From Planctomycetota bacterium (GTDB lineage: Bacteria > Planctomycetota > JBFWNO01): a stretch of 57,781 nt of DNA. Shown one piece after another: positions 9,011-27,578 of the stretch. Both the position numbers and the translations under genes were made by a program. The DNA lies in the NCBI GenBank assembly GCA_050251015.1, contig JBFWNO010000004.1:1-57781 (forward strand). Reading direction: 5' to 3'. Every line of letters starts with the position of its first letter. The first letter of the stretch is position 1. The notes beneath the pieces were generated by a model. It worked only from the letters and a program-made list of their open reading frames with translations, was not told the origin of the DNA and did not search any database.

Positions 9011-9017
9011 TGGAGTG

Positions 9018-9089
9018 TAGCCATGTGGGCGGGGTGGGGTGTGTTCCCCGCAGCGACGAATCACGTGGAAGTCGCAAGGGGAATACACA
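9018..9089. repeat. 72-bp imperfect palindromic (REP/MITE-like) element, intergenic copy
   Basis: Arm GGCGGGGTGGGGTGTGTTCCCC (9018-9039) is complementary to arm GGGGAATACACACTTCCCCGCC (9068-9089). The reverse complement of the core matches the core of the element inside valS (47460-47532) at 24/28 positions by hand alignment. Confidence 0.7.
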
Positions 9090-9199
9090 CTTCCCCGCCC
9101 TTTCGTGAAGGCGAATGCTGTAAAAGTGGGCTGGAGGGGATGGCCCCGTCGCCGCTTTTCAATAGAGCAGTATCCGCTTCGAATTGACATGATTGTGCC

Positions 9200-10864: not shown

Positions 10865-10865
10865 A

Positions 10866-11825
10866 ATGGCTGGGATGACAGCGCATAAGGCGACTTTCAA
10901 CCACAGTGTTGTGATCCCGGTTTACAACGGGGCGGCGACGGTTGGCCGTGTGGTGGATGAGGTCTTTGCCGTCCTTGAACCCTTGGGTTCCACGGAGGTG
11001 GTGCTTGTCAATGACGGCAGTGCAGACTCCAGTGCGGATGTGTGCCGTTCCCTGGCGCAATCGCGGTCCGGCAAGGTGGTCTTTGTGAATCTTTCGAGGA
11101 ATTTCGGGGAACACAATGCCGTGCTGGCCGGCATCAGCCATGCACGCGGCGCAAGGATTGCCATCATCGATGACGACGGGCAAAACCCGCCGTCGGAGAT
11201 CCCTGTGCTCTTGGCTGAAATGGAAAGAGGCGGTTTTGATGTGGTGTACGGCCGCTACGAGCAGAAACAGCACGAGACCTGGCGCAACCTTGGTAGCCGC
11301 TTCAACGATGCCGTGGCCACGAAGCTCATCGGGAAGCCTCCCAACCTCTACCTCTGCAGTTTCAAGGTCATCAACCGTTTTGTGGCCGATCACCTTCGGA
11401 GTCATCCCACTCCCTACCCCTATATCGATTCCATGATCTTCCAGTGCACCCAGAACATCGGACAGGCTCTGGTGAAGCACGCCCAACGTGTGGAAGGCCG
11501 GAGCAACTACAACTTGCGCAGACTGGTGCTTCTTTGGAGCAACATGCTCACCACCTCGAGCATCCTGCCCCTCCGCCTGGCCACATGGTTCGGCCTGGGC
11601 TTCGCCTGTTTTGGGTTTCTTTCAGCCCTGGCCATCTTGGTGGAGGCCATCTTTTTTCCTTCCGGCGAGCGCGGGTGGGCTTCCTTGGCCATGGCGGTGG
11701 TGGTTTTCAGCGGCATCCAGCTTTTCGCCCTGGGGATCGTGGGTGAGTATGTGGGACGGATCTTCCAGGCCGGCCACCGCCGGCCCTTTGTGGTGCGCGA
11801 GGTGGTGGGCGACAGCTCGTCGTGA
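10866..11825 (+). CDS. Polyprenyl-phosphate glycosyltransferase, GtrB/ArnC/DPM1-like GT2 (second copy)
   Basis: VVIPVYNGAATV, LVNDGSADSS, RNFGEHNAVLAG, AIIDDDGQNPP. C-terminal TM pair and the tail GEYVGRIFQAGHRRPFVVREV. Confidence 0.85.
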   Translation: MAGMTAHKATFNHSVVIPVYNGAATVGRVVDEVFAVLEPLGSTEVVLVNDGSADSSADVCRSLAQSRSGKVVFVNLSRNFGEHNAVLAGISHARGARIAIIDDDGQNPPSEIPVLLAEMERGGFDVVYGRYEQKQHETWRNLGSRFNDAVATKLIGKPPNLYLCSFKVINRFVADHLRSHPTPYPYIDSMIFQCTQNIGQALVKHAQRVEGRSNYNLRRLVLLWSNMLTTSSILPLRLATWFGLGFACFGFLSALAILVEAIFFPSGERGWASLAMAVVVFSGIQLFALGIVGEYVGRIFQAGHRRPFVVREVVGDSSS

Positions 11826-12589
11826 AGCCCGAGGAATTCATCACGTTGGAGCGTGCTGAAGAGACCCATTGGTGGTATCTCGGGCTTCGAGATTTCCTCG
11901 AGAAGATGATCCAGAGGCACCTCCCATCGCCACCCCAGCGTGTCTTGGATGCCGGTTGTGGTACAGGGGCCAATCTCAGGTTGATGAAGCGTCTTTTCAA
12001 CCCTGGTTATCTGGGCGGCTTTGATGTGTCGGAGGCATCCCTTGCCTCGTCATCCAGAAAGGTCCCTGGGGCGGATCTTTATGCTTCTTCGATCGTGGAG
12101 CCCCACCTGCAATCCAAGGATCTGGATCTCGTCATCAGCATGGATGTCGTGTACATGGTGGGTTTGCAGGAGGCCATGGCCGGATTGAAGACCCTGGTTT
12201 CTGCCCTGAGGCCCGGAGGCCTGTTCATCCTCCATCTGCCGGCCTACAACTGGCTCAAGAGTGCCCACGACGTGGCTGTGGGGACAAAGGAGCGTTACAC
12301 CTCGAATGACATGAGAGTCCTGGCTCAAGAGCTCGGGATGGAAACGCTGTGGCGGGGTTACCGGGTGTGTCTGTGGTTTCCCATGGTCCTGCTTGCCAGA
12401 TTGCCCAGCATGATTGTTCCTGCCCAGGTGAGTTCGGCCCGATCGGATCTTGACCCTCCTCCTTCCTGGGTGAACAGCCTTCTGGCCCAAGGGCTGTTCA
12501 CGGAGAATTCACTGATCGCCCATGGACTTGTCCCGCCCTGGGGTTCCTCTGTGGCCCTTGTCATGAGGAAGACCCTTCAGACCCCATGA
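11822..12589 (+). CDS. Class I SAM-dependent methyltransferase
   Basis: GTG start in a GTGA overlap. ETHWWYLGLRDF, VLDAGCGTGANLRLM, LDLVISMDVVYM, LRPGGLFILHLP. Confidence 0.85.
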   Translation: MKPEEFITLERAEETHWWYLGLRDFLEKMIQRHLPSPPQRVLDAGCGTGANLRLMKRLFNPGYLGGFDVSEASLASSSRKVPGADLYASSIVEPHLQSKDLDLVISMDVVYMVGLQEAMAGLKTLVSALRPGGLFILHLPAYNWLKSAHDVAVGTKERYTSNDMRVLAQELGMETLWRGYRVCLWFPMVLLARLPSMIVPAQVSSARSDLDPPPSWVNSLLAQGLFTENSLIAHGLVPPWGSSVALVMRKTLQTP

Positions 12590-14217
12590 ATCCGGAATCC
12601 TGGTCGTTGTGGGTCGATGTGCTGGTGTCGACGTTGTTGTACTTTGCACTGATTCCCGGGTTGTTTTTTGCCGTGCCTCGAACCCAATCCGACGACTTTT
12701 CCGGGGTTGTCGTCAGGGGCATCCTCTGGTTTCTGGCCTTGTCCACGGCCATCCTCTTGATCCAGAAACTGCACCCCATGGGGGGCCTTTGGCTATGCTC
12801 CATAATCGCCTTGTATGGGTGGTGGCAACGGCAGGATGGAGCGAAAAGGTTTCGGGATGTCTGGGTCTACCTTGTGATTTGGCCGGCGAGCCTTTTACCT
12901 ATCACCCAATATGACGCCTTGCACTATCAGTTGAGAATCCCCCGGTCCATTCATCGGATCGGCTTGAGTGTGGTGGACGGCACGGATTACCAATCCCAGG
13001 ATATCAATGCCTTGCACTGGTTTCTGAGTGCCTTTGGGTTCAGCGACAAACTCTTGAATGTGGCCGCCATCGCGATGCAAGCGTTCTGTCTTGTGCTTAT
13101 CCTGAGGATGTTCGAGTCATATGCTCCCAAGTCCAGAATTTGGAAATGGGCGTTGCTTGGCATGCCACTCACCGTGCAATTGACCCAGGAGGCCTGGGTT
13201 GACATATCTTGCTCCCTCATGCTCATGCTTTTTGCCTGGCGCTGTCACAAGGGCTGTTGCGGGCTCCTGGAGGCCTTCTTGCTTGGATTCATGTTCCATT
13301 TCAAGTTGGCGTTGTTCATCATGGCTCTCCCGATGCTCCTGCTTATGCCATGGAAGTCATGGCTCAATTCCCGGTGGTTGGGAGTGGCGGCCCTGCCCAT
13401 CCTCGGCAATCTGGTTCTGATTTGGGGGCTCACAGGCTATCCCCTGACCCCCTATATTTTCACTCTGCCCGTCCATCCCGAGTTCCACGAAACCTTCCAA
13501 TCGGCCAAGCTCCTGATTGACGAGGCTGTGCACAAGGATCGCTGGGATGTGCTCTGGTATTTCTATGGCATCTTTTACATGACATGCCCATTACTGTTGC
13601 CGGCTTTTATCCTGGCATTCAGGGAAGTGCGAGTGGGCCTGGCGTTTGTGGTTTCATTTGTCCTGTGGATGGCGCTGTTTCCCCAGTTGAGATTCACCAT
13701 GTATCTGGTTCCAGCCATTTTTCTCATCGGGGCCCTGCAAATAAGGAAGGGAAGGGAAGCCGTGTGCTTGTGGGTCCTCTCACTGTTCCTGCTCTTCTGG
13801 AGGGGTGCCAAGGCTGAGACTCAGTTTTGGAAAAGCCACGATCTCAGATGCATCGCGGAATCCCGGGTCTCCCATCCTTTCTCTAGGTTCATTGGCACGG
13901 ATGAAAAGTTCTACTCCGAAGCTGATTGGGGTTGGGACTATCCCGGCCATGCAGTTGCGGCGAGTGTGCTGCAGTTCAGGTATGAGTATTCCAGTCCCTG
14001 GCTGGAACAGTTCAGACGCGATGGCATACGGCATGTCATTGTGAAAGACGGATACAGGGATTTCTTTCTGAATTTTGGGAATGCCCAATCCTCTTACCGG
14101 ATTGTGTTTGAGAGGTTAGATCGACAAAGGAGAAAGCGAATCGATGAATTGACGCGGGTCAGCGCAGTAGAGGCTCATTGCCTCGATCTCACCCTCTACA
14201 GATTGCCGAATCCATGA
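12586..14217 (+). CDS. Polytopic membrane protein with a C-terminal soluble domain; GT-C-like; paralog of 2338..3957
   Basis: 543 aa with an ATGA overlap at the start. Shares the YDALHYQLRIPRS...GLSVVDGT...LSAFGF block with 2338..3957. Confidence 0.75.
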   Translation: MNPESWSLWVDVLVSTLLYFALIPGLFFAVPRTQSDDFSGVVVRGILWFLALSTAILLIQKLHPMGGLWLCSIIALYGWWQRQDGAKRFRDVWVYLVIWPASLLPITQYDALHYQLRIPRSIHRIGLSVVDGTDYQSQDINALHWFLSAFGFSDKLLNVAAIAMQAFCLVLILRMFESYAPKSRIWKWALLGMPLTVQLTQEAWVDISCSLMLMLFAWRCHKGCCGLLEAFLLGFMFHFKLALFIMALPMLLLMPWKSWLNSRWLGVAALPILGNLVLIWGLTGYPLTPYIFTLPVHPEFHETFQSAKLLIDEAVHKDRWDVLWYFYGIFYMTCPLLLPAFILAFREVRVGLAFVVSFVLWMALFPQLRFTMYLVPAIFLIGALQIRKGREAVCLWVLSLFLLFWRGAKAETQFWKSHDLRCIAESRVSHPFSRFIGTDEKFYSEADWGWDYPGHAVAASVLQFRYEYSSPWLEQFRRDGIRHVIVKDGYRDFFLNFGNAQSSYRIVFERLDRQRRKRIDELTRVSAVEAHCLDLTLYRLPNP

Positions 14218-15254
14218 GGGGGTTCCAACGAAAAATCCAGTATCTCCTGATTCTTGCATTCCTTCTGTTGGTCATTTGTGAATCCCTGACAAGGATGTAT
14301 TGGGTTGTACGGCATGACCTGGGTTTCTTTGACATGGGCCGGATCAATGCTCTCTTTTACCCCAGTGTTGATCAGTCACCTCCTTTGGATCCAAAGGTCC
14401 ACAATATCCTGGTCTTGGGGGGGTCGGTGGTCTCCCGTGAGTGGAACCCGGTGTTCGGAGGATTGTCAGGCCGCTTGGAGGAAAAGTGGGGACATCCGGT
14501 GAACGTGGCCCATTGGGCCCAAGTCAGCCATTCCTCTCTCGATTCCCTGGTGAAATACACGGCGATGGAGGGGCAACCTTTCGACACGGTGTTCATTTAC
14601 CATGGCATCAACGACTTGAGGGCGAACAACTGCCCGCCCGAGGTGTACCGCGATGACTACAGCCACATGGTCTGGTATGAGCAGGTGAACCTCTGCGTGG
14701 CCTATCCCTGGAAGAACTGGTGCGTGCTTCCCTTCACGCTTCACTACTTCAAGGTGATCGTGGAGGGCAAACTCAGGAGCGCTCCGAAACTGCCGTCCTC
14801 GGGTTTTCCGGAATCAGGCCCGCTGGCGTCCTGGATCCAATTTGGAAGCGATATCAAGACCAGGGTCGCATTCCGAAGGAACATCCAGTCCATCGTCGAG
14901 AAAGCAGGGTTGAGGGGACAGCGGGTGGTGTTGGCGACGTTCAAAACCTACTTCAGCCCCGGCTACACCCGGGAGAAGTTCGACCGGCACGCCTTGGATT
15001 ACGCGGATTACAAATGCCCGATTGAAACCTGGGGCCTGCCCGGGAACATCAGGAAGGGTATGGAAGTCCACAATGCCATCCTCAGGGATGTGGCCAAGGC
15101 CTATCCCCATGTGACGCTGGTGGATATGGACCTCCTTATGCCCTCTCAGGGGGAGTTCTTCATGGATGTTTGTCATTTGAGCCCGAAGGGTCAGGAAGTG
15201 TTTCTGACCCTCCTCCTTGAGCATTGGCCTGCGGCAAAAGCGCTCAAGCCCTAG
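14214..15254 (+). CDS. Membrane-anchored SGNH/GDSL-family hydrolase (esterase or O-acyl-modifying enzyme)
   Basis: The ATG at 14214 (MRGFQRKIQYLLILAFLLLVI, TM anchor) sits in an ATGA overlap. Block I-like VLGGSVVS, block III HGINDL, block V MDVCHLSPKG (DxxH). Confidence 0.65.
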   Translation: MRGFQRKIQYLLILAFLLLVICESLTRMYWVVRHDLGFFDMGRINALFYPSVDQSPPLDPKVHNILVLGGSVVSREWNPVFGGLSGRLEEKWGHPVNVAHWAQVSHSSLDSLVKYTAMEGQPFDTVFIYHGINDLRANNCPPEVYRDDYSHMVWYEQVNLCVAYPWKNWCVLPFTLHYFKVIVEGKLRSAPKLPSSGFPESGPLASWIQFGSDIKTRVAFRRNIQSIVEKAGLRGQRVVLATFKTYFSPGYTREKFDRHALDYADYKCPIETWGLPGNIRKGMEVHNAILRDVAKAYPHVTLVDMDLLMPSQGEFFMDVCHLSPKGQEVFLTLLLEHWPAAKALKP

Positions 15255-16342
15255 GCAAAAAGTTCCCTTACGGCCTCCGCGACCTCGTCCACCTGGTCAT
15301 CTCGGAGATCCTGGTGGAAGGGCAGCGAAAGGCAGTGGGAAGCCAGCCTTTCTGCTACCGGGTGGCTCCCGCCTCCCGTCCATGAGGGATGCTGGTGGAT
15401 GGCGCGGGGATAATGGATCAGCGTCTCGATGCCCTTGGCGGCCAAATGCTGTTGGAGGACATCGCGATCCTCGGCTTCGACCACAAAGAGGTGGGGGGAG
15501 GCCAGCACGTTCTCTTCCAGTCTAGGCAGGGCTAGACCCGCAATGCCGGACAAGCCTTCGAGATAACGTTCATGCAGTCTGAGTCTCTTGCGGTTCCATT
15601 CCGCGAGGTGGGCCAGCTTGGCGCGAAGCACGGCAGCCTGCATATCATCCATCCTGCTGTTGATGCCCCATTCCTCGGAAATGCCATAGACGAAGCCGTA
15701 CATCCTGAGGCGCCGCACTCTTTGAAGAAGGGTGATGTCGGTGGAGGCGACAAAACCCCCGTCACCCAGGGCGCCCAGGTTCTTGGTGGGATAAAAGCTG
15801 AAGGCGGCAGCCTGACCCAAGGTTCCGATGCGCCGTTGCCCAATGCTTCCGGCTGTGCACTGGGCGCAATCCTCGAGAAGTTTCACGCCCGCCCTGGCAC
15901 AGGCCTGTTGGATCTTCAGGGCATCGTGGGTGGGATACCCGTATAGATGCACAAAGATCAGGGCGCGGGTGTTCGGGGTGATCGAGGACTCCACCAGCGC
16001 GGGATCCATGCAGCGGGTCTGGGAACGGATGTCCACCAGTTTGGGCGAGGCCCCGATCTGCCTCACGGCGGCCGCGGTGGGAAAGGCCGTCATGGCCGGC
16101 ATGAGCACTTCGTCGCCAGGGCCCATGCCCAGGGCTCTCAGGGCCAGGGCCAGGGCATCGGTGCCACTGGCGCAGGCCAGGCCGGGGGGGCCTTGGGTGG
16201 TGGCCGGAAATTCCTTTTCAAAGGCCTCCACCTCCGGGCCGAGAATGTAGCGCCCCGAGTCCACAACCCTTCCGATGGCCTCCATGAGCTCGGGTCGCAA
16301 GCGGGCGCTTTGGTCTGCAAGGGGCATGAAGGGGATTTTCAT
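15251..16342 (-). CDS. DegT/DnrJ/EryC1/StrS-family PLP-dependent sugar aminotransferase
   Basis: Start MKIPFMPLADQSARLRPEL (ATGA overlap with the upstream SDR stop). GRYILGPEVEAFEKEF, and the PLP-lysine block FSFYPTKNLGALGDGG. Confidence 0.9.
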   Translation of the reverse strand: MKIPFMPLADQSARLRPELMEAIGRVVDSGRYILGPEVEAFEKEFPATTQGPPGLACASGTDALALALRALGMGPGDEVLMPAMTAFPTAAAVRQIGASPKLVDIRSQTRCMDPALVESSITPNTRALIFVHLYGYPTHDALKIQQACARAGVKLLEDCAQCTAGSIGQRRIGTLGQAAAFSFYPTKNLGALGDGGFVASTDITLLQRVRRLRMYGFVYGISEEWGINSRMDDMQAAVLRAKLAHLAEWNRKRLRLHERYLEGLSGIAGLALPRLEENVLASPHLFVVEAEDRDVLQQHLAAKGIETLIHYPRAIHQHPSWTGGGSHPVAERLASHCLSLPFHQDLRDDQVDEVAEAVRELFA

Positions 16343-17364
16343 GGGAGGTAATACCTGAGATGGGATTGGTAGAACTCCGCCATTTGCCGGAGTCCATCCT
16401 TCATCATCACACGGGGTGACCAACCCAGGAGACTCTGGATCTTCGTGAAATCGCATTGGGTGCTACCCAGATCGATGCGTTTTTTCTCATCGGGGAAGGG
16501 GATCTTCTTCACCTTGGCCTGGGGGCAGAATTCTTGAAGGGTTGTGGCGATGGCTTCCAACGACACGGTTTCACGGTGGCCCAAATTGAAAATCCCGCCG
16601 ACAGCATTGGGATGCATGGCGGCCAGCAGGAAGGCTTCCACTACATCCGATACGTGGTTGAGGTCGCGGGTCTGGGTGCCGCCCCCGTAGAGCTCAATCT
16701 CCTGGCCTTCCACGGCCCGCCTGACAAACCAGGGCAGGAAACCCTGCCTGTTGTGGCGGATCAGCTGCCCCGGTCCATAGGTGTTGGTCAGCCTGAGGGA
16801 GCAGGCCTGCACTCCATAGACGCGGTGATAAAGAATATGGGCCCATTCGGCGGCATATTTGCTGATGCCGTTGAGGTCGACGGGTTGAACGATGTGATCC
16901 TCACGGATCGGCAGGGTTTTGGGCGCGCCATACACCTGTCGAGTGCCGGCATACACCACCCGGGCCTGCGGGCAGACATGGCGGAGGGTTTCCAGAAATG
17001 TCAGGTGATCCGAATAATTCAGCTCAAGGTCATCCAAGGGATGCGTCATGCTGTCGATGTGACTGACCTGACCCGCCAGGTTGAAGACATGGGTGCAACC
17101 GGTGAGGGCCTCCGCGGCCTTGCCTGCGTCACCCAGGCGCCCCTCGATCAGCCGAACCCTGTCTCGGATGTCGTGGATGTTGAAGTCGTTGGCGCCCAAG
17201 CCATCCACCCTGGCATCCAGGATGGTGACATGGGCCCCGGCTTGGACCAGGGCGCGCGCCATGTGGCTCCCCACAAAGCCCAATCCACCTGTGACCAGGG
17301 TGCGGCATTCCTTGTAGGGGGAGAGGATCTCCTGACGAAACGACGCGCCAAAGATTTGGCTCAT
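16339..17364 (-). CDS. NAD-dependent epimerase/dehydratase (extended SDR; NDP-sugar 4-oxidising type)
   Basis: VTGGLGFVGSHMARAL (GxxGxxG), a catalytic YxxxK in SKYAAEW, and NLAGQVSHIDS. Confidence 0.9.
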   Translation of the reverse strand: MSQIFGASFRQEILSPYKECRTLVTGGLGFVGSHMARALVQAGAHVTILDARVDGLGANDFNIHDIRDRVRLIEGRLGDAGKAAEALTGCTHVFNLAGQVSHIDSMTHPLDDLELNYSDHLTFLETLRHVCPQARVVYAGTRQVYGAPKTLPIREDHIVQPVDLNGISKYAAEWAHILYHRVYGVQACSLRLTNTYGPGQLIRHNRQGFLPWFVRRAVEGQEIELYGGGTQTRDLNHVSDVVEAFLLAAMHPNAVGGIFNLGHRETVSLEAIATTLQEFCPQAKVKKIPFPDEKKRIDLGSTQCDFTKIQSLLGWSPRVMMKDGLRQMAEFYQSHLRYYLP

Positions 17365-18817
17365 GTTGTACCCATGTTACACTAGCCCTGTGGCGCGATT
17401 TGGCAAACTGCTCCAGGGGGCTGCCCTTGCGCTGATCGGTGCGGAGTTGTTGTTTTCATTGTTCGTTGCCCGCATGGCGCCTTGTGCCGGCGACGATGGT
17501 TTTTTTCAATACCTTGCGGCCCTCCACTTCCATCATGGACTGGTACCTATCAGGGATTTTCTTTGCGAGTACAGCCCCGGATTCGTTTACTTTTTCTCGG
17601 GGGTGTGGACTGTGATGGGTGTGGGTGTCACCGACACGCTACTGGCCATGGCTTTGGTGGGGTTTGCCATTGTGATTCTGAGTTCCATGGCTTGCGCCTA
17701 TCAAACGGGAAGCCTGAATGCTGCCCTCTTCTGTGCCGTGGTGATGATCCCCATGAGGCTGGTCTATGAGGGGGGGTATGCCTACACGGAACCCCTGGTG
17801 ATGATCTTTGTCATGGCAGCCTACCTTCTCCAAATCAAGGGCGGCCGACGTTGGTCTTGGGCGACGGGACTGTTTCTGGGTTCGGCGCTGATGATGAAGC
17901 AAAGTGCCATGGTGTTCCTGCCGGCTTTCGGACTCGATCTTGTGATGCGGGGTGGTGTTTGGGGTCGCTGGAAGGCCTTGGTGATCTGGTTGGCGGGGCT
18001 TGGCGTGCCCTTTGGATTCTTCTGCCTGGCCAATGGACTGCCCTTCCTTGAGACCCTCTGGTATGTGGCTGATTACGGTCACCAGGAATACAGGGGGGAT
18101 TTCATTTCGTTGCCAGAAACCATTCGGTTCCATTTGCAGATGTGGGTCTTTGTTTGGCCGGCCCTTGGTTCGGCCGTTTGGGTCCTTTGGAGGCACCGCT
18201 CCAACTATGCGTTGGCCTTGGGATGTCTTGCCGGGGCCCTGGCCCTGTGTTCCTGCCAGTCTTCTTACCATTACTTTCTTTCCGCCCTGCCTTTCCTTTG
18301 TTTGACCTTGGCTCAGGCCGCCACTGATCTCTGGAGATTTGCGGGCCCGGTGAAGATCGGAGTCGCGGGATTGGTGGGGATGATGGCGGTGGGTGTGTTG
18401 GGTCGTGATCGATTGACTCAAAAGCTATCCGCCCTCACCGGACCCGAACCCTTGTTCCGGACTTTTTACGGGGGCCTCGACGGGTCTGTCCGCCGGCGCC
18501 AGATCAAAAAGGCCTCCATCATCCGGGACATGGCGGGGGATCGAAAGCTGATGATCCTGGGTGATGTGGCCATGCAGTATTACTCGGGGATCCGGCTGTA
18601 TGTGGATGAGCCCAACATGGGCTACCTACGTTGGCCCCAGGACCAGGACCTGATCGACGGACGATTCCTGGGGCGTTGCGACTTCATTGTGGTCAGGCCG
18701 TCCCAGGACCGCTACAACTATGAGGGGCTGATCCAGCACCTCAAGGAATCCGGTTATGTCGAGCATGCCAGGATCGCCGTCTGGGACGATGTGGTGGTGG
18801 ACCTGAGGCGTCCGTGA
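17363..18817 (+). CDS. Polytopic membrane protein, GT-C-like
   Basis: 484 aa. TM1 (LLQGAALALIGAELLFSLFVA) is followed by the acidic loop CAGDDGFFQYLAALHFHHGLVPIRDF. About 11 hydrophobic segments and a soluble C-terminal domain. The annotated ATG overlaps the divergent gene's ATG (CATG), so the true start may be slightly downstream. Confidence 0.7.
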   Translation: MLYPCYTSPVARFGKLLQGAALALIGAELLFSLFVARMAPCAGDDGFFQYLAALHFHHGLVPIRDFLCEYSPGFVYFFSGVWTVMGVGVTDTLLAMALVGFAIVILSSMACAYQTGSLNAALFCAVVMIPMRLVYEGGYAYTEPLVMIFVMAAYLLQIKGGRRWSWATGLFLGSALMMKQSAMVFLPAFGLDLVMRGGVWGRWKALVIWLAGLGVPFGFFCLANGLPFLETLWYVADYGHQEYRGDFISLPETIRFHLQMWVFVWPALGSAVWVLWRHRSNYALALGCLAGALALCSCQSSYHYFLSALPFLCLTLAQAATDLWRFAGPVKIGVAGLVGMMAVGVLGRDRLTQKLSALTGPEPLFRTFYGGLDGSVRRRQIKKASIIRDMAGDRKLMILGDVAMQYYSGIRLYVDEPNMGYLRWPQDQDLIDGRFLGRCDFIVVRPSQDRYNYEGLIQHLKESGYVEHARIAVWDDVVVDLRRP

Positions 18818-19866
18818 AGGTCCTCTTGATGGCCTACAAGTTTCCGCCATGCCACATGAGCGGGCTCGAAATGGGGACCGATTTCATGGCCCGGGAACTT
18901 GTGCGGCGAGGCCATCAGGTTCATGTGGTGGTGACCCGGAGGGACAGGGGCCAGTCCTTTCATGGCCTTCAACATGGTTACCGTCTTTGGCGATTGCCGG
19001 TCTTGCCTGTCCCCGTGCTCAGAAGCCTTTGGGAGTGGTGGGCGGCCAGCCTCATGGTGCTGTGGATACGGCCCGACCTGTTCCATGGTCAGGCGTTGGT
19101 GCCCTGCGGTTTCCTGGCGGGTTTTTGGGGACGGCTACTCGGTTGCCGTTCCGTGGTTTATCTGTACGGCCGGGATGTCCGGCACCCTTCCACCTTTTTG
19201 CGCGAAACACTGGGCCGGCCTGCCTTGACCTGGTGCACCGTGGTCCTGGCCGCTACCGAGCATTGCCGGTCAGCAGCCCTTGAGATCAAACAGCGGGATA
19301 TCAGGGTGTTCCTGTCCGGATTCGAGCCCCCTGCGCGTTGGCCTCAGAGGGAACGTGGAAAGCGCATCCTCTTTGTGGGCCGGCTCGACAAGGTGAAAGG
19401 TGTGGATGTCTTGTTGAAGGCGCTACCCCAGATTGAGGGAGTGGGCCTGGATATTGTGGGGGAGGGTCCACTCCGCAGGGAGTTGGAGTTTTTGGCTGCA
19501 ACCTTGGGAGTGGATTCGCGTGTCGCCTTTTTGGGAAGCAGAAGCAATGACGATGTGCTCTCTTTGATGGCCCGTTCGGCCGTCCTTGCAGTCCCCTCCC
19601 TGGAGGAACCCTATGGTGTCGTCATCCTGGAGGCCCTCTCTGTGGGTTGCCCCGTTGTGGCCTCCCGTGTGGGAGGGATCCCCGAAATCATCGACAGCCC
19701 GGATAAGGGATTCTTGGTGGAACCAGGTGTACCAGCCCCGCTGGCCGAGGCCCTCCGTAAGGCCCTTCATGAGGCCGATCCCTCGCCCGAGGTGGTTCAG
19801 GGGATTCGAAGCCGTTTCACATGGCGTTCCAGGGTGGACGAATTGGAAGCCCACTATGCGGCGTAG
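18814..19866 (+). CDS. Glycosyltransferase family 4
   Basis: GTG start in a GTGA overlap. MKVLLMAYKFPP. E-x7-E region SLEEPYGVVILEALSVGCPVVASRVGGIPEII. Confidence 0.85.
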   Translation: MKVLLMAYKFPPCHMSGLEMGTDFMARELVRRGHQVHVVVTRRDRGQSFHGLQHGYRLWRLPVLPVPVLRSLWEWWAASLMVLWIRPDLFHGQALVPCGFLAGFWGRLLGCRSVVYLYGRDVRHPSTFLRETLGRPALTWCTVVLAATEHCRSAALEIKQRDIRVFLSGFEPPARWPQRERGKRILFVGRLDKVKGVDVLLKALPQIEGVGLDIVGEGPLRRELEFLAATLGVDSRVAFLGSRSNDDVLSLMARSAVLAVPSLEEPYGVVILEALSVGCPVVASRVGGIPEIIDSPDKGFLVEPGVPAPLAEALRKALHEADPSPEVVQGIRSRFTWRSRVDELEAHYAA

Positions 19867-20740
19867 GATTCAAATGATTGTGGCCGTTGCGACACTCCTC
19901 CTGGGGACGGCAACATGGTTTGTCTACAACGCGATGGAACAGAAGCACTTGGCTCGCTGGGAGCTCATGGGAAGCGCACCCTCGGGACTCCCTGTTTTCA
20001 TGTTCCATGAACCCGATGCCCAGGAACTTGAGGAGGTTTTGGATCACCTGGTGCGCAACCAATACATCACCCTGGGTGTAAGGGAGGCTTCGGATATTCT
20101 TGCCGGTCGACGGCCCTTCACGGGTCGGGAAGTCTTGTTGACCTTCGATGATGGCAAGCTCGCGCTTTGGAGCTATGTCTGGCCGGCCCTCCAGAAACGG
20201 AAGCTCCGTGGTGTGGCCTTTGTGAACCCCGGCTTGGTCACCGAGTCTTCCTTGCGTCCCCAACATCCGGGCGAGGGGCCGGCCAACGAGGACCTCAGCC
20301 AGTACTGCTCCTGGGACGAGCTCCAGAAGGCTGCGGGCCAAGGCTTGGATATTCAGAGTCATGCCTGGAGCCATGAGCGGGAGATCTACGCTGACGTAGC
20401 CCTGCACCCGCAGTATCACCAGGAGATCCTTCAGGGATTGGTGAGGGCCAAGGACCGGTTGATATCCATGGGTTTCGGTCGGCAGCTCCTGTTCTGTGCT
20501 CCCTTCGGGTCCGTGAGCCCTGCATTGGAAGAGATGGCACTGGAGGCCGGTTATCCTCAAGTGGTGGGTGTCAGGCCCGATCGTTACGAAGGTTTCTATT
20601 CCCCGGAAAATGAGGCGGGTGCCAAACGGGTGATCCGGTTCAACCACCGGAGCATCCTTTCTTTGCCGGGTGAAGGGCGTGAGGGGCTGATGGGCCGTAT
20701 GTGGCGCAGACTGTGGAGAGGTGGCGATCGATATGAGTGA
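19856..20740 (+). CDS. Membrane-anchored polysaccharide deacetylase (CE4/NodB family)
   Basis: Start MRRRIQMIVAVATLLLGTATWFVY (TM anchor; alternative ATG at 19874). CE4 motif 1 LLTFDDGKLALW and motif 2 SHAWSHE (HxxxH). Confidence 0.75.
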   Translation: MRRRIQMIVAVATLLLGTATWFVYNAMEQKHLARWELMGSAPSGLPVFMFHEPDAQELEEVLDHLVRNQYITLGVREASDILAGRRPFTGREVLLTFDDGKLALWSYVWPALQKRKLRGVAFVNPGLVTESSLRPQHPGEGPANEDLSQYCSWDELQKAAGQGLDIQSHAWSHEREIYADVALHPQYHQEILQGLVRAKDRLISMGFGRQLLFCAPFGSVSPALEEMALEAGYPQVVGVRPDRYEGFYSPENEAGAKRVIRFNHRSILSLPGEGREGLMGRMWRRLWRGGDRYE

Positions 20741-21656
20741 CCAGCCTCTCGTCAGTGTGATCATTCCCGCTTACAAGGCCCGAGACTACCTGCGCAAGTG
20801 CCTCCAAAGCATCGAAGAGAACCTCAGTGTTCCCCACGAGGTGATTGTGGTTGAGGATGCGGGCCGCGATGGCACGGTGGACATGGTCCGGTTGGAGTTT
20901 CCCCATGTTGTCCTGCTGGAAAACGAACAAAATTTGGGCGTGATCGGTGCAAGGGCCAGGGGAATCGAGAAAGCCAGGGCTTCTCTTCTTTTTTTTGTCG
21001 ATTCCGACATCGAACTCCTCCCTGGGGTCTTTGAGGCCCTGCATGGAGAGTTGAAGAGTGACGCACGCATTGCGTATGTCACTTGCAACAAGCGATCCGT
21101 CGATGGAACGCACCAACGGAGCGCCTTTGCATGGCCGACCTTGTCGGGTCAAATCCGTGCCATGATTCCTCCGATCCGCACAAGGGATGTCCTGTCGGCG
21201 GAGGCGGGACACCGGCAAGCCTTTGATCCCGGATGGATCAGTGTGGGCCACAGTCTCATGAGGCTGGAGGCTTTCAAGGAGACAGGCGGTTTCCTGAAAG
21301 GGGTCTTCTTTTTTGGGGAGGATGTGGATATCTGCGCCAAGCTCAGGGCTAAGGGTTGGCGGGTGCGCTTCATCCCCTACCTTGGATTTGTCCATCACGG
21401 CAGTATTTCCCAAGTGCTGGAACCCAACCGGTTCAGGGTGAAGTCCTGGCTGTCTTCGGTCATCCTGGCGGATCTCTATTGGCCCCGATGGCAGGCTTTG
21501 GTCCTCCGATTTCTGCTTTTTTTCAGGGGACTTGTTGTCTGTGGGATGCAGATCTGTCGCGGGCAGGATGTGAGGGAGATCCTGCAGGCCCTCCCCAAGC
21601 TGCTTTGGCCTATCCCCCTGACCACCAATTATCGGGCCCGGGATGCCTTAGGATGA
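20733..21656 (+). CDS. Glycosyltransferase family 2
   Basis: MSDQPLVSVIIPAYKARDYLRKCLQSI, VVEDAGRDGT, FFVDSDIEL (DxD). An alternative GTG start lies at 20721. Confidence 0.85.
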   Translation: MSDQPLVSVIIPAYKARDYLRKCLQSIEENLSVPHEVIVVEDAGRDGTVDMVRLEFPHVVLLENEQNLGVIGARARGIEKARASLLFFVDSDIELLPGVFEALHGELKSDARIAYVTCNKRSVDGTHQRSAFAWPTLSGQIRAMIPPIRTRDVLSAEAGHRQAFDPGWISVGHSLMRLEAFKETGGFLKGVFFFGEDVDICAKLRAKGWRVRFIPYLGFVHHGSISQVLEPNRFRVKSWLSSVILADLYWPRWQALVLRFLLFFRGLVVCGMQICRGQDVREILQALPKLLWPIPLTTNYRARDALG

Positions 21657-21666
21657 TGCACCTCCC

Positions 21667-22392
21667 ATGAGCCTCCCCATGCCCAAGGAAAGCCAGGAAC
21701 GCGTGAAAGACTCTCTGGAGTTTCTTTCCAGTGTCTACAACTACAACCATTGGATCGCCCGCACCCTAGAGCCTTTTTGTGGTGCCCGGATCCTGGAACT
21801 GGGATGCGGGATCGGGAGCATGGTGCCCTATTTCCTGACAAGGAAGGCCTTCTTGGGAGCCGACAACGATCCGAGGTTTGTGGCGTATTGCGAAGAGCAG
21901 TACAAGGATCACCTGAATTGCCGCTTCTTTCATGGTGACCTCGCCAAGCGGGAACTCGCCCTCCCGGAAGGCGCCGTGTTTGACACCATTCTCAGCCTGA
22001 ATGTGATCGAGCACCTGGAAGACGATGTGGGGGCTCTGGAGTACATGGCGAGCCTGGTTCCGGATGGCGGCAATCTGGTCCTTCTCCTTCCTGCCCACCC
22101 CTCCATCCATGGCCATCTTGATGATGTGGTGGGACATTTCCGCCGCTATTCCAAGGAAGACCTGCTTGCCAAGATCGGCCGTGTGGGATTGCGCACAGCC
22201 AGCTGCTTTTATTTCAACGTGGTGGGCTATGTTGGATGGGGGCTCAACAGCAGGGTCTTGGGCCGCAGTCGCATTCCTGTGAAGAGTACCCTCATGTATG
22301 ACAAATACATTGTCCCCCTGCAGGCCTGGTTGGAGGGATTGATCCATCCTCCTTTCGGACAATCCATCATCCTGCACGCCGTCAAGACATGA
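21667..22392 (+). CDS. Class I SAM-dependent methyltransferase
   Basis: ILELGCGIGSM, FDTILSLNVIEHLEDD, PDGGNLVLLLP. The C-terminal tail GQSIILHAVKT resembles those of the other three MTs. Confidence 0.85.
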   Translation: MSLPMPKESQERVKDSLEFLSSVYNYNHWIARTLEPFCGARILELGCGIGSMVPYFLTRKAFLGADNDPRFVAYCEEQYKDHLNCRFFHGDLAKRELALPEGAVFDTILSLNVIEHLEDDVGALEYMASLVPDGGNLVLLLPAHPSIHGHLDDVVGHFRRYSKEDLLAKIGRVGLRTASCFYFNVVGYVGWGLNSRVLGRSRIPVKSTLMYDKYIVPLQAWLEGLIHPPFGQSIILHAVKT

Positions 22393-23891
22393 AGGTCTCG
22401 GTGGTGGTGCCAGTGGCCGATGCTTCGCGCAATCGCCTGCTTGCGGATCTCTTGGAGTCGCTCAAGAAACAGACACTCCGGGACTTTGAGGTGATCCTGG
22501 TGGAAGGCGACAGCCGCCAGGGCCGGGCCATCAACCAGGGCGTTCGGGTGGCACGAGGCGAGTGGATCGTGACCATGGATGATGACACGATGATCTTGGA
22601 TGACGATCTGTTGGCATGCCTTGTGGCTCGCATGGAGGAGGCGCCGGAAATCGGCCTGGGGGGAGCGGCCTGTGTGATCCCTGATTCTGCCTCTGCCTTC
22701 CAGAAGCGGGCCATGCTGGAGGTTCCCCGCAGGCAATTCCCTGTCCAGGAATCCACCGTGGACAGCGATTTTGTTCAGCATCCCTGCCTGATTATCCAAA
22801 GGGATCTCTTCATGGCGATCGGGGGCGAGGATGAGGAATTGGTGAGAGGGCTTGATCCGGTCCTGCGCAAGAAAGTCAGGGATAGAGGGAAGAGGGTGGC
22901 CATTCTTGCCGGAACCCGTGTGGCCCACTTGGTCCCGGATTCTTTGGGTGCCTTGGTGAGGATGTACCGCCGCAATGGGCGGGGCTCGGCCTTTGCCTCG
23001 AGGTTTTTCCCCGGAAGGGTCCTGGAATTGACAGATGGGTTTGACGGAGGAAGCTTTGTGGAAACCCGGCCCCTGGGATACAGGGTCCAACGGAGGATGA
23101 GGGGTTTCATGGCCGACCTATGGCATGGCCGATGGCTTTCACTCTCCTGTCAGGCGGGCTATGTGACGGGTTGGGTGGAGGGATTTCTTGAGGGCGGTTT
23201 CCCGGGTTCTTCGCCTCGGGTGTATGGCGAGCCATCTTCTCCTGAGGGACAGCCACCCGTGCGTCGCCTGCGGGCCGTGGTCGGCCCCCCTTCGACTGAT
23301 GAGCAGATTGCCCGCATGCATGTGAACCCCACGAGGGATTTCTGCATGGGGTCCGAAACCAGCCCCGTCCTAGACTTCTATCGTGATAAGGTGGGACTCT
23401 TCCGTCAGTTTGAACCACAGGGTGTCTTGGTGGAACAGAATGCATCGGGTGAAGTCTTGGGCTTTCTCCTCTTGAACATTCATCCCGGCAAGTTCAAGAA
23501 GCGGCTCCTGATGAGTGCCTATCCTTTGCGATATCTCTGGAGTCTCGTCACCCGGCGTTACAAGGGAAGCCGGGAAGGTTGGCGCAAGTGGTGGAGGCTT
23601 CCCCTGGCCTTTATCCGCAAACCCAAGGGGGCCCCCGGATCCGGTGGTGCCAAGGTTTTGGCGTTCATTGTGAGGGAGGACCAACGGGGCCAAGGGATCG
23701 GGAGTGCCCTCCTTCGCCGCGCCGAGAGTGAGACCCTGCGCAGGGGCAAGCATCACCTCGAAGTCACGGTGGCCAAGGACAATGCCAAGGCCATCAGGGT
23801 CTATGAGAAAGAAGGTTACAAGATCACTGGCGAATTGCTGGAAAGCACGGGACAGAGCTACTATCTCGAGAAACCTGTCGGCGTCCCGTGA
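22389..23891 (+). CDS. Fusion protein: N-terminal GT2 glycosyltransferase plus C-terminal GNAT N-acetyltransferase
   Basis: N-terminus: KVSVVVPVADASRNRLLADLLESLKKQT, FEVILVEGDS, IVTMDDDT. C-terminus: VLAFIVREDQRGQGIGSALLRRAE...LEVTVAKDNAKAIRVYEKEGYK (GNAT motif A, Q/RxxGxG). ATGA overlap at the start. Confidence 0.8.
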   Translation: MKVSVVVPVADASRNRLLADLLESLKKQTLRDFEVILVEGDSRQGRAINQGVRVARGEWIVTMDDDTMILDDDLLACLVARMEEAPEIGLGGAACVIPDSASAFQKRAMLEVPRRQFPVQESTVDSDFVQHPCLIIQRDLFMAIGGEDEELVRGLDPVLRKKVRDRGKRVAILAGTRVAHLVPDSLGALVRMYRRNGRGSAFASRFFPGRVLELTDGFDGGSFVETRPLGYRVQRRMRGFMADLWHGRWLSLSCQAGYVTGWVEGFLEGGFPGSSPRVYGEPSSPEGQPPVRRLRAVVGPPSTDEQIARMHVNPTRDFCMGSETSPVLDFYRDKVGLFRQFEPQGVLVEQNASGEVLGFLLLNIHPGKFKKRLLMSAYPLRYLWSLVTRRYKGSREGWRKWWRLPLAFIRKPKGAPGSGGAKVLAFIVREDQRGQGIGSALLRRAESETLRRGKHHLEVTVAKDNAKAIRVYEKEGYKITGELLESTGQSYYLEKPVGVP

Positions 23892-24967
23892 AGATCGCGG
23901 TGGTCAGCGACTACCTCGACCCCCTCAATTGGGGAGGGGCCTCCAGGGTAGCGGCAATGCAGGCCCGGGAATTGACCCGCGAAGGCCATGATGTGCTCCT
24001 GCTGGGGGCATCCTCCAGTCTGGCCCGAGTGGGATCCTGTCGTCATGTGGCCTTTCCCCATCGGCCTGGTCTGCGTGGAGCCTGGAGCCTCCGGCGCCAT
24101 GTGCGAGCCCATGTGGGGGCCTTCGCTCCCGACCTTGTGGTGGCCCATCAGCCCCTGGTGGCCAGATTTGTGATCGAACAGTTTCCCCTGGTGCGGTTGC
24201 GGTATGTCTTCCATTCGAGTTGGAGCGCCGAGGTGGAGGCCAGAGGAGGCCGGCCTGGCATGAGACGAAGGGTGGAGCGCCATGTCCTCCGCAAGGCGGA
24301 AAGGATCTTTTGCACCAGTCCCTTCACGTTGGGGGAGCTCGAGCGAACCGAGGCGTCATCCTTGCACAAATCGAAAGTCAACCCCTTGGCGGTAGAGAGT
24401 CCTCCCTTTATCCCTGATCCTGGTAGGGAAGAGTGGGTCCGACGCACCCACGACATTCCGCCAGGGATGAAGGCCGTGGCGGTCTTCCGGAGGCTGACAG
24501 CAAGAACGGGCGTTGATCTTGCCATTCAGGCAGTGAAAGAGTGCCCTGAGGTTTTCCTCCTTGTGGGAGGCACCGGAGAGCAGGCCGGAGCCATGCGGGA
24601 ACTGGCCGCCAACGAAGGCATTTCAGACAGGTGCCGCTTTCTGGGCTATGTGCCCGAGGATCAGATGGTCTCCCTCCTCCAGGGGGCCTCTGCCGTGATG
24701 GTGCCCAGCAGGGACCTTGAGGGATTCGGGCTCTCCACACTTGAGGCCATGGCCTGCGGGTGCCCGGTGGTGGCGACGGATGTGGGGAACAACAGGGCCT
24801 TGGTGGAGCAATGTGCCGGTGGTGCCCTGTCCGATGGCGAGGGACCCGTGGCCCTGGCATCGGCCCTGCGCCGGGTCTTGGGATCTTCATGGGACAGGGT
24901 GGCCATGGGACAAAGGGTCCGCCAGTCGTTCAGCTGGAACAGGCATGTTCAGGAGCTATTGTGCTGA
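23888..24967 (+). CDS. Glycosyltransferase family 4
   Basis: GTG start in a GTGA overlap. MKIAVVSDYLDPLNWGG. E-x7-E region SRDLEGFGLSTLEAMACGCPVVATDVG. Confidence 0.85.
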   Translation: MKIAVVSDYLDPLNWGGASRVAAMQARELTREGHDVLLLGASSSLARVGSCRHVAFPHRPGLRGAWSLRRHVRAHVGAFAPDLVVAHQPLVARFVIEQFPLVRLRYVFHSSWSAEVEARGGRPGMRRRVERHVLRKAERIFCTSPFTLGELERTEASSLHKSKVNPLAVESPPFIPDPGREEWVRRTHDIPPGMKAVAVFRRLTARTGVDLAIQAVKECPEVFLLVGGTGEQAGAMRELAANEGISDRCRFLGYVPEDQMVSLLQGASAVMVPSRDLEGFGLSTLEAMACGCPVVATDVGNNRALVEQCAGGALSDGEGPVALASALRRVLGSSWDRVAMGQRVRQSFSWNRHVQELLC

Positions 24968-24972
24968 GATTC

Positions 24973-27569: not shown

Positions 27570-27578
27570 GATACGCCC

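Follow-up and report, generated by a model that had tools for sequence, protein, structure and literature searches.

The window, a stretch of 57,781 nt from a Planctomycetota bacterium (contig JBFWNO010000004.1), appears to hold two adjacent, separable things: a module that would load an amino sugar onto a lipid carrier, and a separate polysaccharide deacetylase that would not act as an ArnD-like step on that carrier. We give this joint reading a probability of about 0.5. The earlier note on this DNA had described an Arn-like pathway in which a sugar is aminated, acylated, loaded on a lipid, deacylated and transferred. Amination, lipid loading and transfer outside the cell are supported, acylation and deacylation are not, and the parts are not homologues of the Arn proteins. 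The named genes (DegT, SDR, CE4, two GT2s and the GT2-GNAT fusion) were all found with strong domain matches at the coordinates in Table 1. The locus also contains a second deacetylase (PIG-L), four methyltransferases and one GDSL/SGNH protein, which had not been listed before.

Table 1. Features of the locus, with window positions, strand and domain evidence.
Feature	Position	Strand	Evidence and remarks
Second module, whole	7371-10864	+	Methyltransferase, GT2, polytopic protein
Methyltransferase MT2 (second module)	7371-8090	+	
PgfS/GtrB-like GT2 (second module)	8087-9010	+	PgfS model 229 bits, ArnC model 141 bits; two C-terminal TM helices
TM554, polytopic protein, 554 aa (second module)	9200-10864	+	
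GT2, ArnC/GtrB-like	10866-11825	+	ArnC model 168 bits; two C-terminal TM helices
MT3, class I SAM methyltransferase	11822-12589	+	Pfam Methyltransf_25/11
TM543, orphan polytopic membrane protein, 543 aa	12586-14217	+	~10 or more TM helices
GDSL/SGNH-like protein, TM-anchored	14178-15254	+	Lipase_GDSL_2 28.6 bits, under the 32.9 cutoff
degT, DegT-family PLP aminotransferase	15251-16342	-	PF01041, Pfam 310 bits
Extended SDR	16339-17364	-	PF01370 (Epimerase), Pfam 162 bits
Polytopic membrane protein, 484 aa	17363-18817	+	GDDG motif after TM1; divergent from SDR
GT4 glycosyltransferase	18814-19866	+	Glycos_transf_1 124 bits; directly upstream of CE4 gene
CE4 de-N-acetylase, TM-anchored	19856-20740	+	PF01522 59.9 bits (cutoff 23.1)
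Remainder of CE4 operon, whole	20721-28307	+	Pfam and NCBIfam
GT2 in CE4 operon	20721-21656	+	
MT in CE4 operon	21667-22392	+	
GT2-GNAT fusion	22389-23891	+	Pfam
GT4 in CE4 operon	23888-24967	+	
Polytopic protein in CE4 operon	about 24973-26400	+	
Second GT4 after CE4	26397-27569	+	
PIG-L/LmbE deacetylase, cytoplasmic	27579-28307	+	End of CE4 operon

The SDR and the Aminotransferase

The stop codon of the SDR gene and the start codon of degT overlap by 4 nt (CCATGA, an ATGA overlap), and the two genes are translationally coupled. Against the PDB, the DegT protein scored 302 bits with DesV, 262 with 7b0d, 231 with QdtB and 203 with WbpE, but 127–132 bits with ArnB, and in the alignment its Lys is retained within SFYPTKNLG. 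By these scores it groups with the C3 aminotransferases DesV, QdtB and WbpE and not with ArnB, of which it had been called the counterpart. The earlier note held that clustering of the SDR and the aminotransferase with enzymes of soluble NDP-amino sugars would speak against its model; for one of the two, the aminotransferase with its C3 clade, this was found. The clade makes soluble NDP-3-amino sugars, normally consumed by cytoplasmic glycosyltransferases, which are abundant at the locus, and this counts against a lipid route.

The SDR has an intact GxxGxxG motif and, in the alignment, T141-R142-Q143 and N165-x-x-x-K169, with an Asn where the catalytic Tyr belongs. TRQ is present in 82 and the Asn in 80 of 84 members of the family, which has more than 7900 relatives. 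The best PDB match was T. maritima GalE with only 117 bits. With T-R-Q in place of T-S-E or T-D-E, no catalytic Tyr and a score of 34 bits with the ArnA model, the SDR is not the ArnA-DH counterpart that had been proposed. Because the Tyr is missing, its capacity to form a keto sugar is uncertain.

A Cassette Found in Many Phyla

We compared 80 genome loci carrying this SDR family, from Chloroflexota, Acidobacteriota, CPR, Woesearchaeota, Cyanobacteria, Verrucomicrobiota and others. DegT was the gene directly after the SDR in 54 of 74 loci; no DegT was within reach in 16 of the 74 SDR loci with sufficient downstream flank, so that the SDR need not always go with amination. A polyprenyl-phosphate-type GT2 lies immediately upstream of the SDR in 46 of 72 loci, frequently with overlapping stop and start codons, and a cassette methyltransferase was seen at most 6 kb away in 22 of 56. 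The short cassette GT2 aligns with ArnC, Dol-P-hexose transferase and PpgS across nearly the full catalytic length. One locus (L060) has the colinear order SDR, DegT, GT2 (ArnC-like, 270 bits to that of the window), MT and a PMT_2/TPR protein. Large polytopic ORFs were found beside the cassette in 39 of 54 loci, and up to 4 kb from it they show a 2.2-fold enrichment (71 versus 33 in the same length of sequence). A scan of ten membrane proteins next to the cassette in five loci brought up PMT_2 and YfhO (L072, L032) and Wzy_C (L025). Homologues of CE4, GT2-GNAT and PIG-L occurred in none of 56 cassette loci.

The polyprenyl-phosphate-type GT2, SDR, DegT and methyltransferase form a widespread, multi-phylum cassette, whose recurrent partner is the methyltransferase and not an acyltransferase/deacylase pair. 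All four parts are present in the window (GT2 at 10866, MT at 11822, SDR and DegT). Taken together, the synteny, the enriched polytopic neighbours, some of them PMT_2, YfhO or Wzy_C, and the complete set in the window make amination, loading on a lipid and transfer outside the best reading. The comparative context backs the core of the earlier proposal, in which an ArnC-like GT2 loads the product of SDR and DegT onto polyprenyl phosphate for transfer by a polytopic protein.

The ArnC score of the GT2 at 10866 falls under the equivalog cutoff of 529, its TM helices span residues 246–264 and 274–292, and its orthologues (255–299 bits) adjoin SDR-DegT in L060, L062 and L072. MT3 aligned over its full length with the cassette methyltransferase of L005 (37% identity, E = 2e-47) and is its orthologue; in the PDB, three enzymes that N-methylate sugars (CalS10, DesVI and TylM1) matched weakly (22–29 bits). 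Overlaps of 4 nt join the GT2 to MT3 and MT3 to TM543. The operon is closed by the GDSL/SGNH gene, whose product has a TM helix at 22–40 and whose stop codon overlaps that of degT (CCTAGG). The second module has the same build, so that two such modules stand in tandem, and MT2 shares 30% identity with both MT3 and an MT of L060. Since this methyltransferase subfamily is also found with an amine-free PgfS-like GT2, the cassette enzyme might not touch the amino group at all.

Polytopic Membrane Proteins

Seven polytopic proteins had been labelled ArnT-like GT-C, which their sequences do not confirm. Only the one at 1037-2428 passed the Pfam threshold (DUF2142, 71 bits), and the others gave nothing or faint matches (ALG10, E = 0.1; TMEM260, E = 0.09). 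TM554 matched the PMT_2 profile weakly and colinearly in hhalign (probability 20%, E = 1e-3). The 484-aa protein had no significant family match (ALG10, E = 0.1), and its PDB matches were non-significant (E about 0.5). For TM543 there was no match in Pfam, NCBIfam or the PDB and only 4 among 1.84 billion representatives; its paralogue is 2338-3957 (27% identity, E = 1e-41), and its AF2 model had a pLDDT of 35. We regard TM543 as a candidate transferase or flippase. None of the polytopic proteins in the window can be shown to be GT-C. As had been noted before, no GtrA- or ArnE/F-like flippase ORF was seen: positions 1-33000 contain no ORF of 60–200 aa with at least two predicted TM helices.

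Proposed Route and Alternatives

Domain identities, motifs, gene coupling, conserved synteny and the fold class of CE4 are direct results; from clade, family and gene context we infer substrates, regiochemistry, step order and acceptor as follows. The SDR-DegT pair (15251-17364) would work with the convergent GT2-MT-TM543-GDSL operon. The atypical NAD-binding SDR would oxidise a common NDP-hexose to a keto sugar, which DegT would transaminate, most likely at C3 as its clade suggests. The cassette methyltransferase may then methylate the sugar, on N or O, and the ArnC-like GT2 would move it onto polyprenyl phosphate. A flippase would carry the lipid-linked sugar across the membrane, and one polytopic membrane protein would join it to an envelope acceptor.

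We consider it rather unlikely that the locus follows a conventional cytoplasmic route, in which a soluble NDP-3-amino or 3-acetamido sugar arises from the SDR and DegT, perhaps with the help of the GNAT, and is built into a polysaccharide or glycolipid by the GT4/GT2 enzymes of the locus, while the ArnC-like GT2s and the membrane proteins serve to attach other, unrelated sugars as side chains. This would fit the aminotransferase, whose clade makes NDP-3-amino sugars, and the presence at the locus of four domains of GT4, three more of GT2 and a GNAT, which matches the WecD model faintly (24 bits). However, neither a 4,6-dehydratase, a 3,4-ketoisomerase nor a nucleotidyltransferase was found among the scanned window ORFs, it is the polyprenyl-phosphate-type GT2 that is most frequently fused in register with the SDR, and the minimal cassettes of CPR and Woesearchaeota have no cognate GT-B adjoining. 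With the QdtB, DesV/DesVI, TylB/TylM1, WbpB/WbpE and NtdC/NtdA pathways the locus shares the aminotransferase clade and a methyltransferase nearby, as for DesVI and TylM1. Unlike them, it also has no Gfo/Idh/MocA oxidase, the keto sugar would need to come from a Tyr-less SDR, and the methyltransferase resembles DesVI/TylM1 weakly (22–26 bits).

It also seems improbable that the sugar is tailored on the lipid, in which case the GT2 would load a common hexose (Glc/GlcNAc) on polyprenyl phosphate, and oxidation by the SDR, amination by DegT and methylation by the MT would follow at the membrane, ahead of the flip. Neither the SDR nor DegT carries a membrane anchor, both retain the overall build of nucleotide-sugar enzymes, and we know of no DegT enzyme acting on a polyprenyl-linked sugar. 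In favour of such tailoring, the common cassette starts with the GT2, which overlaps the SDR, the SDR active site is non-canonical, and matches of the cassette MT include phospholipid N-methyltransferases (8ys9 in the PDB, 41 bits; PmtA in NCBIfam, 30 bits). Precedent is given by ORF13, proposed to act on Und-P-Ribf, and DprE2, both SDRs proposed to act on polyprenyl-phosphate sugars (PMC11127046).

The CE4 Deacetylase

A single TM helix lies at the N-terminus of CE4, and the protein contains the motifs LLTFDDG and SHAWSH. As RRR precedes the helix, the N-terminus is predicted to lie inside and the catalytic domain outside, as in PplD, which is membrane-anchored with its catalytic domain outside; ArnD acts at the cytoplasmic leaflet. 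The metal and catalytic residues, which the earlier note had asked about, are kept: in the alignment H45, D92, D93, H163 and R255 are invariant and H167 nearly so, which covers the catalytic D92 as well as the triad of D93, H163 and H167. The DD...H-x3-H metal site and the invariant His N-terminal to the DD motif are shared with PgaB, IcaB, BpsB and PplD. CE4 scored 42 bits with IcaB and 25 bits with PgaB and did not match the ArnD NCBIfam model. The top Foldseek matches of its AF2 model (pLDDT 87) were IcaB, PgaB, PplD and BpsB (E from 4e-15 for IcaB to 3e-11), with ArnD at rank 15 (E = 3e-4, TM-score 0.29–0.30).

By sequence and modelled fold, CE4 thus appears to be of the PgaB/IcaB/PplD type, and not the ArnD counterpart it had been called. 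Unlike that group, it has no PgaC/IcaA-type synthase at its locus, and it is only 14–24% identical to the solved members. The family is very small (4 close homologues found), and the nearest (44–47% identity) lie in loci that are rich in GT4 or unrelated and that contain neither SDR nor DegT. As part of the divergent GT4/GT2 operon, CE4 would de-N-acetylate a glycan of the GlcNAc type after its export. The acylate-then-deacylate steps are unsupported because CE4 is an outward-facing, biofilm-type polysaccharide deacetylase by these predictions, and the GT2-GNAT, proposed as the transient N-acylase, gave a generic GNAT match. The logic ascribed to CE4 is that of the Und-P-GalNAc/GlcNAc "load, deacetylate, transfer" systems, Francisella FlmF2/NaxD/FlmK and Bordetella LgmABC. 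The cytoplasmic PIG-L deacetylase would be a closer analogue there than CE4; unlike in those systems, neither window deacetylase shows a link to a polyprenyl-phosphate sugar, and neither accompanies the cassette elsewhere. The model in which GT2-GNAT N-acylates the amino sugar and CE4 deacylates it on the lipid, before flip and transfer, therefore deserves very little credence: every domain type lies within one 20-kb neighbourhood and the CE4 active site is retained, but the CE4 fold, its predicted orientation, its neighbours and its absence from the cassette loci all stand against it.

Relation to Known Systems

Like the Arn system (PmrHFIJKLM; L-Ara4N on lipid A), the proposed route combines a co-transcribed SDR and DegT with a polyprenyl-phosphate-loading GT2 and a polytopic membrane transferase, which in cassette relatives is PMT_2, the Pfam family of ArnT. 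Unlike Arn, the SDR is not of the decarboxylase type, the aminotransferase falls outside the ArnB clade, a formyltransferase, an ArnD-like deformylase and ArnE/F are all absent, and the additional component that recurs is a methyltransferase. Three-component extracytoplasmic glycosylation systems (GtrA/B/Gtr*, CsbB/GtcA/YfhO, GacI/J/K/L and PgfS/PgfM; PMC11127046) likewise place a GtrB-like GT2 beside polytopic membrane proteins, as in the tandem modules of the window, and YfhO and PMT_2 partners recur in related cassette loci. They differ from the cassette, which has a dedicated SDR and aminotransferase (and methyltransferase) ahead of lipid loading, and in the window no flippase resembling GtrA or MATE proteins can be recognised.

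Unlike Arn, the cassette also occurs in LPS-free lineages (Chloroflexota, CPR, archaea), and its acceptor therefore cannot generally be lipid A. We conclude that the probable task of this widespread, previously unstudied cassette is to make an amino sugar, attach it to a lipid carrier in the membrane and pass it to an outer-face transferase.

Organization of the glycan locus

Bases 1–28300 of the window form one large glycan locus with a GC content of about 0.59, followed by a hybrid histidine kinase and then by mnmG, gltX and other housekeeping genes. An earlier note had proposed an Arn-like route here. All the genes that it named were found in place, and the TFDDG and HAWSH motifs are present.

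Features of the glycan locus and its surroundings
Feature	Position	Strand	Remarks
Class I methyltransferases	glycan locus		n = 4
GT4 enzymes	glycan locus		n = 4
Ordinary GT2 enzymes	glycan locus		n = 3
Polytopic membrane proteins	glycan locus		n = 7
GDSL/SGNH-like protein	glycan locus		TM-anchored
DUF2142 protein	1037–2428		71 bits
Paralogue of TM543	2338–3957	-	
Two tandem modules	7371–14217	+	
GtrB/ArnC-like GT2	8087–9010		two C-terminal TM helices
TM554, membrane protein	9200–10864	+	
GtrB/ArnC-like GT2	10866–11825		two C-terminal TM helices
MT3, methyltransferase	11822–12589	+	
TM543, membrane protein	12586–14217	+	
SDR-DegT pair	15251–17364	-	
DegT aminotransferase	15251–16342	-	
SDR	16339–17364	-	
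TM484, membrane protein	17363–18817	+	
CE4 deacetylase	19856–20740	+	TM-anchored
GT2-GNAT fusion	22389–23891		
GT4-PIG-L pair	26397–28307	+	
PIG-L deacetylase	27579–28307		cytoplasmic
Hybrid receiver/HisKA/HATPase protein	28307–29488	+	
Polytopic protein	38084–39439	+	amid housekeeping genes
ECF-type sigma domain protein	39396–41120	-	

The start codon of the SDR gene (CAT, 17362–17364) overlaps the first ATG (17363–17365) of the divergent membrane-protein ORF, and if the latter starts at the alternative GTG at 17390 the intergenic gap to the SDR is still only 25 bp. The GDSL and DegT genes are convergent and their stop codons overlap (CCTAGG, 15251–15254). As both the starts and the stops overlap, promoters and terminators must sit within coding sequence. 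The hybrid receiver/HisKA/HATPase protein begins on the final base of the PIG-L gene and is a possible regulator of the glycan locus.

The two tandem modules have one build, a methyltransferase of the same subfamily, a GtrB/ArnC-like GT2 and a polytopic protein, and this pairing is also seen in the Bacteroidia genome with locus L060. In the adjacent GT4 and PIG-L genes, the GT4 scores 108 bits on BshA, 98 on MshA and 59 on GlcNAc-PG synthase, and the PIG-L/LmbE deacetylase scores 54 bits on the BshB2 model. The pair recalls BshA/BshB, MshA/MshB and PIG-A/PIG-L and represents a second, cytoplasmic route to free glucosamine that the earlier note had not listed. Among the housekeeping genes, the polytopic protein has a PMT_2 match below the cutoff (E = 6.6e-4); the neighboring protein joins an ECF-type sigma domain to a long C-terminal extension.

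A GT2-SDR-DegT-methyltransferase cassette across phyla

The window holds all four parts of a cassette that appears to be uncharacterised and widespread, consisting of a polyprenyl-phosphate-type GT2, an SDR, a DegT aminotransferase and a methyltransferase. A profile scan using one genome per species yielded at least 597 loci encoding an SDR relative, of which the best 80 were analysed. These belong to Chloroflexota, Acidobacteriota, Verrucomicrobiota, Cyanobacteria, Betaproteobacteria, CPR phyla and Woesearchaeota. Among the best 80, DegT is the gene right after the SDR in 54 of the 74 loci with enough flank, and a polyprenyl-phosphate-type GT2, frequently overlapping the SDR, lies immediately upstream in 46/72. 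Of 56 loci, 22 have the cassette methyltransferase within 6 kb. Some genomes carry the GT2, SDR and methyltransferase without DegT, so the product of the SDR is not always aminated. Literature searches on the cassette, on SDRs lacking the catalytic tyrosine and on PDB entry 7B0D turned up no specific account.

The short GT2 of the cassette matches ArnC and PgfS, as well as Dol-P-hexose transferase and PpgS, with which it aligns over almost the whole profile. Orthologues of the window GT2 at 10866 (255–299 bits) adjoin SDR-DegT in Verrucomicrobiota and Bacteroidia genomes. MT3 is 37% identical to the cassette methyltransferase, and its subfamily also occurs with an amine-free PgfS-like GT2. MT3-type enzymes may methylate N or O and may not be dedicated sugar N-methyltransferases. 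At L060 the genes are colinear (SDR, DegT, GT2, methyltransferase and a PMT_2/TPR protein) and, as in the window, a second module of methyltransferase, PgfS-like GT2 and membrane protein adjoins the cassette.

Within 4 kb of the cassette there is a 2.2-fold excess of large polytopic ORFs. A scan of ten neighboring membrane proteins from five loci identified PMT_2 (above the cutoff), YfhO and Wzy_C proteins among them; PMT_2 is the Pfam family of ArnT. In a deltaproteobacterial genome (L032, 12843–15038), PMT_2 proteins come after the cassette, together with a sulfatase-superfamily protein that has a membrane anchor and the LtaS/EptA build.

An SDR family with an atypical active site

The SDR is of the extended type with an intact GxxGxxG motif. 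It is roughly equidistant from GalE, tyvelose epimerase, UXS and RmlB, with a best PDB match of 117 bits. Its NCBIfam scores are 122 bits for LegB and RmlB, 104 for GalE, 51.5 for the UXS/ArnA-like NF008872 (cutoff 294) and 33.9 for ArnA (cutoff 777). The family is very large (>7900 matches at about 50% identity, with 54% as the highest identity in any genome of the species collection), and its members, which number in the thousands, are mostly auto-annotated as UDP-glucose 4-epimerase.

The active site motifs are T141-R142-Q143 and N165-x-x-x-K169. The TRQ motif is present in 82 of 84 genomic family members, and the T(S)-R-Q pattern also runs across 23 aligned members. The catalytic Tyr of Y-x-x-x-K is replaced by Asn, within D-[VIL]-N-G-[IV]-x-K, in 80/84, whereas the ordinary SDR paralogues at those loci retain Tyr in 17 of 23 cases. 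The R-Q after the catalytic Thr and the His in AGQVSHxDS are invariant in the family. At the T-R-Q site 4,6-dehydratases carry T-D-E and UXS/ArnA enzymes T-S-E, and the T-R-Q motif rules out both assignments. Together with the exchange of Tyr for Asn, this means that the SDR is neither a 4,6-dehydratase nor a decarboxylase of the ArnA-DH/UXS type with T-S-E and Y-x-x-x-K, which had been its proposed role in the Arn-like route.

The aminotransferase resembles C3 enzymes

The DegT start overlaps the SDR stop (ATGA), and the protein retains the PLP lysine. Against PDB sequences it scores 302 bits with DesV (2oga), 262 with 7b0d, 231 with QdtB, 203 with WbpE and 159 with NtdA, above ArnB (127–132 bits) and the perosamine synthases (about 125). 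On the ArnB NCBIfam model it reaches 160 bits (cutoff 631). The cassette DegT of an Anaerolineae genome ranks alike, with 457 bits for 7b0d, 374 for QdtB and DesV and about 200 for ArnB. The top matches with a name, DesV included, belong to the C3 aminotransferases. This closeness argues against the proposed role as an ArnB-type C4 aminotransferase of a UDP-4-keto-pentose, and is half of what the earlier note had said would speak against its proposal. In NDP-3-amino-6-deoxyhexose pathways of the Qdt/Des type, the C3 aminotransferase is fed by a T-D-E 4,6-dehydratase and a 3,4-ketoisomerase. The window has the T-R-Q SDR instead, and neither a cupin isomerase nor a nucleotidyltransferase turned up in the window ORFs that were scanned.

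The CE4 protein and N-acylation

The CE4 protein matches PF01522 (Polysacc_deac_1) with 59.9 bits. The catalytic Asp and the Asp-His-His metal site are present: D92, D93 and H163 are invariant in the alignment of homologues and H167 is nearly so. H45, N-terminal to the DD motif, is also invariant, a placement which we presume to be equivalent to the permuted PgaB layout. One N-terminal TM helix follows an RRR sequence, and this anchor is kept in the close homologues P0122–P0124; the catalytic domain is thus predicted to lie outside the cytoplasmic membrane.

By sequence the protein scores 42 bits with IcaB and 25 with PgaB, and the ArnD models of NCBIfam gave no match. In a Foldseek search with its AF2 model (pLDDT 87) the top ten hits were all IcaB, PgaB, PplD or BpsB chains (E from 4e-15 to 3e-11; IcaB E = 4e-15, TM-score 0.60–0.74), whereas ArnD (8t0j) ranked 15th (E = 3e-4, TM-score 0.29–0.30). 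On fold, sequence and predicted topology we reject an ArnD-like enzyme, and with it the suggested deacylation of a lipid-linked sugar. The conserved residues, the predicted outside position and the PgaB/IcaB-type match suggest that the CE4 protein is probably active.

Only four close homologues were found (44–47% identity). Two of their contexts were examined, one GT4-rich, where a CotH protein and a TonB-dependent receptor are encoded, and one unrelated, and no SDR or DegT was near the CE4 gene in either. As for a partner synthase of the PgaC/IcaA type, the window GT2s reach at most 47 bits on PgaC_IcaA, where the cutoff is 422. The most likely substrate for de-N-acetylation by the CE4 protein is an exported glycan that its own GT4/GT2 operon makes. 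Free surface amines may still arise in this way, following the logic of PNAG/PplD and not that of Arn.

A formyltransferase domain was not found among the window ORFs scanned. The GNAT domain fused to GT2 matches the generic acetyl-CoA core only. Homologues of CE4, GT2-GNAT and PIG-L occur in none of 56 long cassette loci.

Lipid loading and membrane proteins

In Arn and three-component glycosylation systems, a sugar is made or tailored in the cytoplasm and attached to polyprenyl phosphate; outside, a polytopic transferase uses it (PMC11127046). The related loci L060, L072 and L032 match such systems through their PMT_2 and YfhO proteins. In the window the GtrB-like polyprenyl-phosphate GT2 is matched twice and no flippase was recognised; as the earlier note had observed, there is no small ArnE/F- or GtrA-like ORF (60–200 aa with at least two TM helices) in 1–33000. 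The GT2 at 10866 aligns to positions 7–313 of 316 of the ArnC model; it scores 168 bits, short of the 529 that the equivalog cutoff requires, and shares its C-terminal TM helices with ArnC and GtrB, a resemblance at the family level.

Pfam searches at E up to 10 with all polytopic proteins gave only faint hints of GT-C. With hhalign, TM554 has a weak colinear match to the PMT_2 profile (probability 20%), and TM484 and the TM543 alignment have none; TM554 and TM484 found nothing meaningful among PDB sequences. TM543 and its paralogue (both ∼540 aa, 27% identity) have the motif YQLRIPRxxHRxGLSxxDGT in common. A word-index search with TM543 returned only itself, and an exhaustive profile search of 1.84 billion representatives gave four hits, the two window paralogues and two fragments. 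Judged by these searches, the two proteins are an orphan, lineage-restricted membrane protein family. The AF2 model of TM543 from the two-sequence alignment was unusable (pLDDT 35).

Proposed pathway and its implications

The synteny of the cassette and its PMT_2, YfhO and Wzy_C neighbors point to the gene logic of Arn and three-component systems. Of the Arn-like scheme, "aminate, load on lipid, transfer" is therefore backed by the comparative data, with non-Arn parts, while "acylate, deacylate" finds no comparative support, as CE4 and GT2-GNAT are absent from the 56 cassette loci.

We consider it more likely that SDR and DegT act on a nucleotide sugar (probability about 0.5) than on a lipid-linked one. 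In the alternative, which we regard as improbable, the GT2 loads a common hexose on polyprenyl phosphate, and SDR, DegT and methyltransferase then oxidise, aminate and methylate it at the membrane. If true, it would be the first known case of an aminotransferase using a polyprenyl-linked sugar as substrate, and would amount to a pan-phylum means, shared by CPR and DPANN archaea, of displaying a (methyl)amino sugar at the cell surface.

The CE4 protein is reassigned from an analogue of the lipid-carrier deformylase to a probable post-export polysaccharide deacetylase. If tailoring at the nucleotide-sugar level holds, an Arn-like route would exist far outside the context of polymyxin resistance, in which an amino sugar produced in the cytoplasm travels on polyprenyl phosphate and is attached on the outer side of the membrane. 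It would be built from non-homologous parts in Chloroflexota, Acidobacteriota, Verrucomicrobiota, Cyanobacteria, CPR and DPANN archaea, most of them without lipid A. It would also give a testable function to several thousand proteins annotated as UDP-glucose 4-epimerase that lack the catalytic tyrosine, and would point to a modification of the surface, perhaps cationic or methylated, in phyla that have been little studied.
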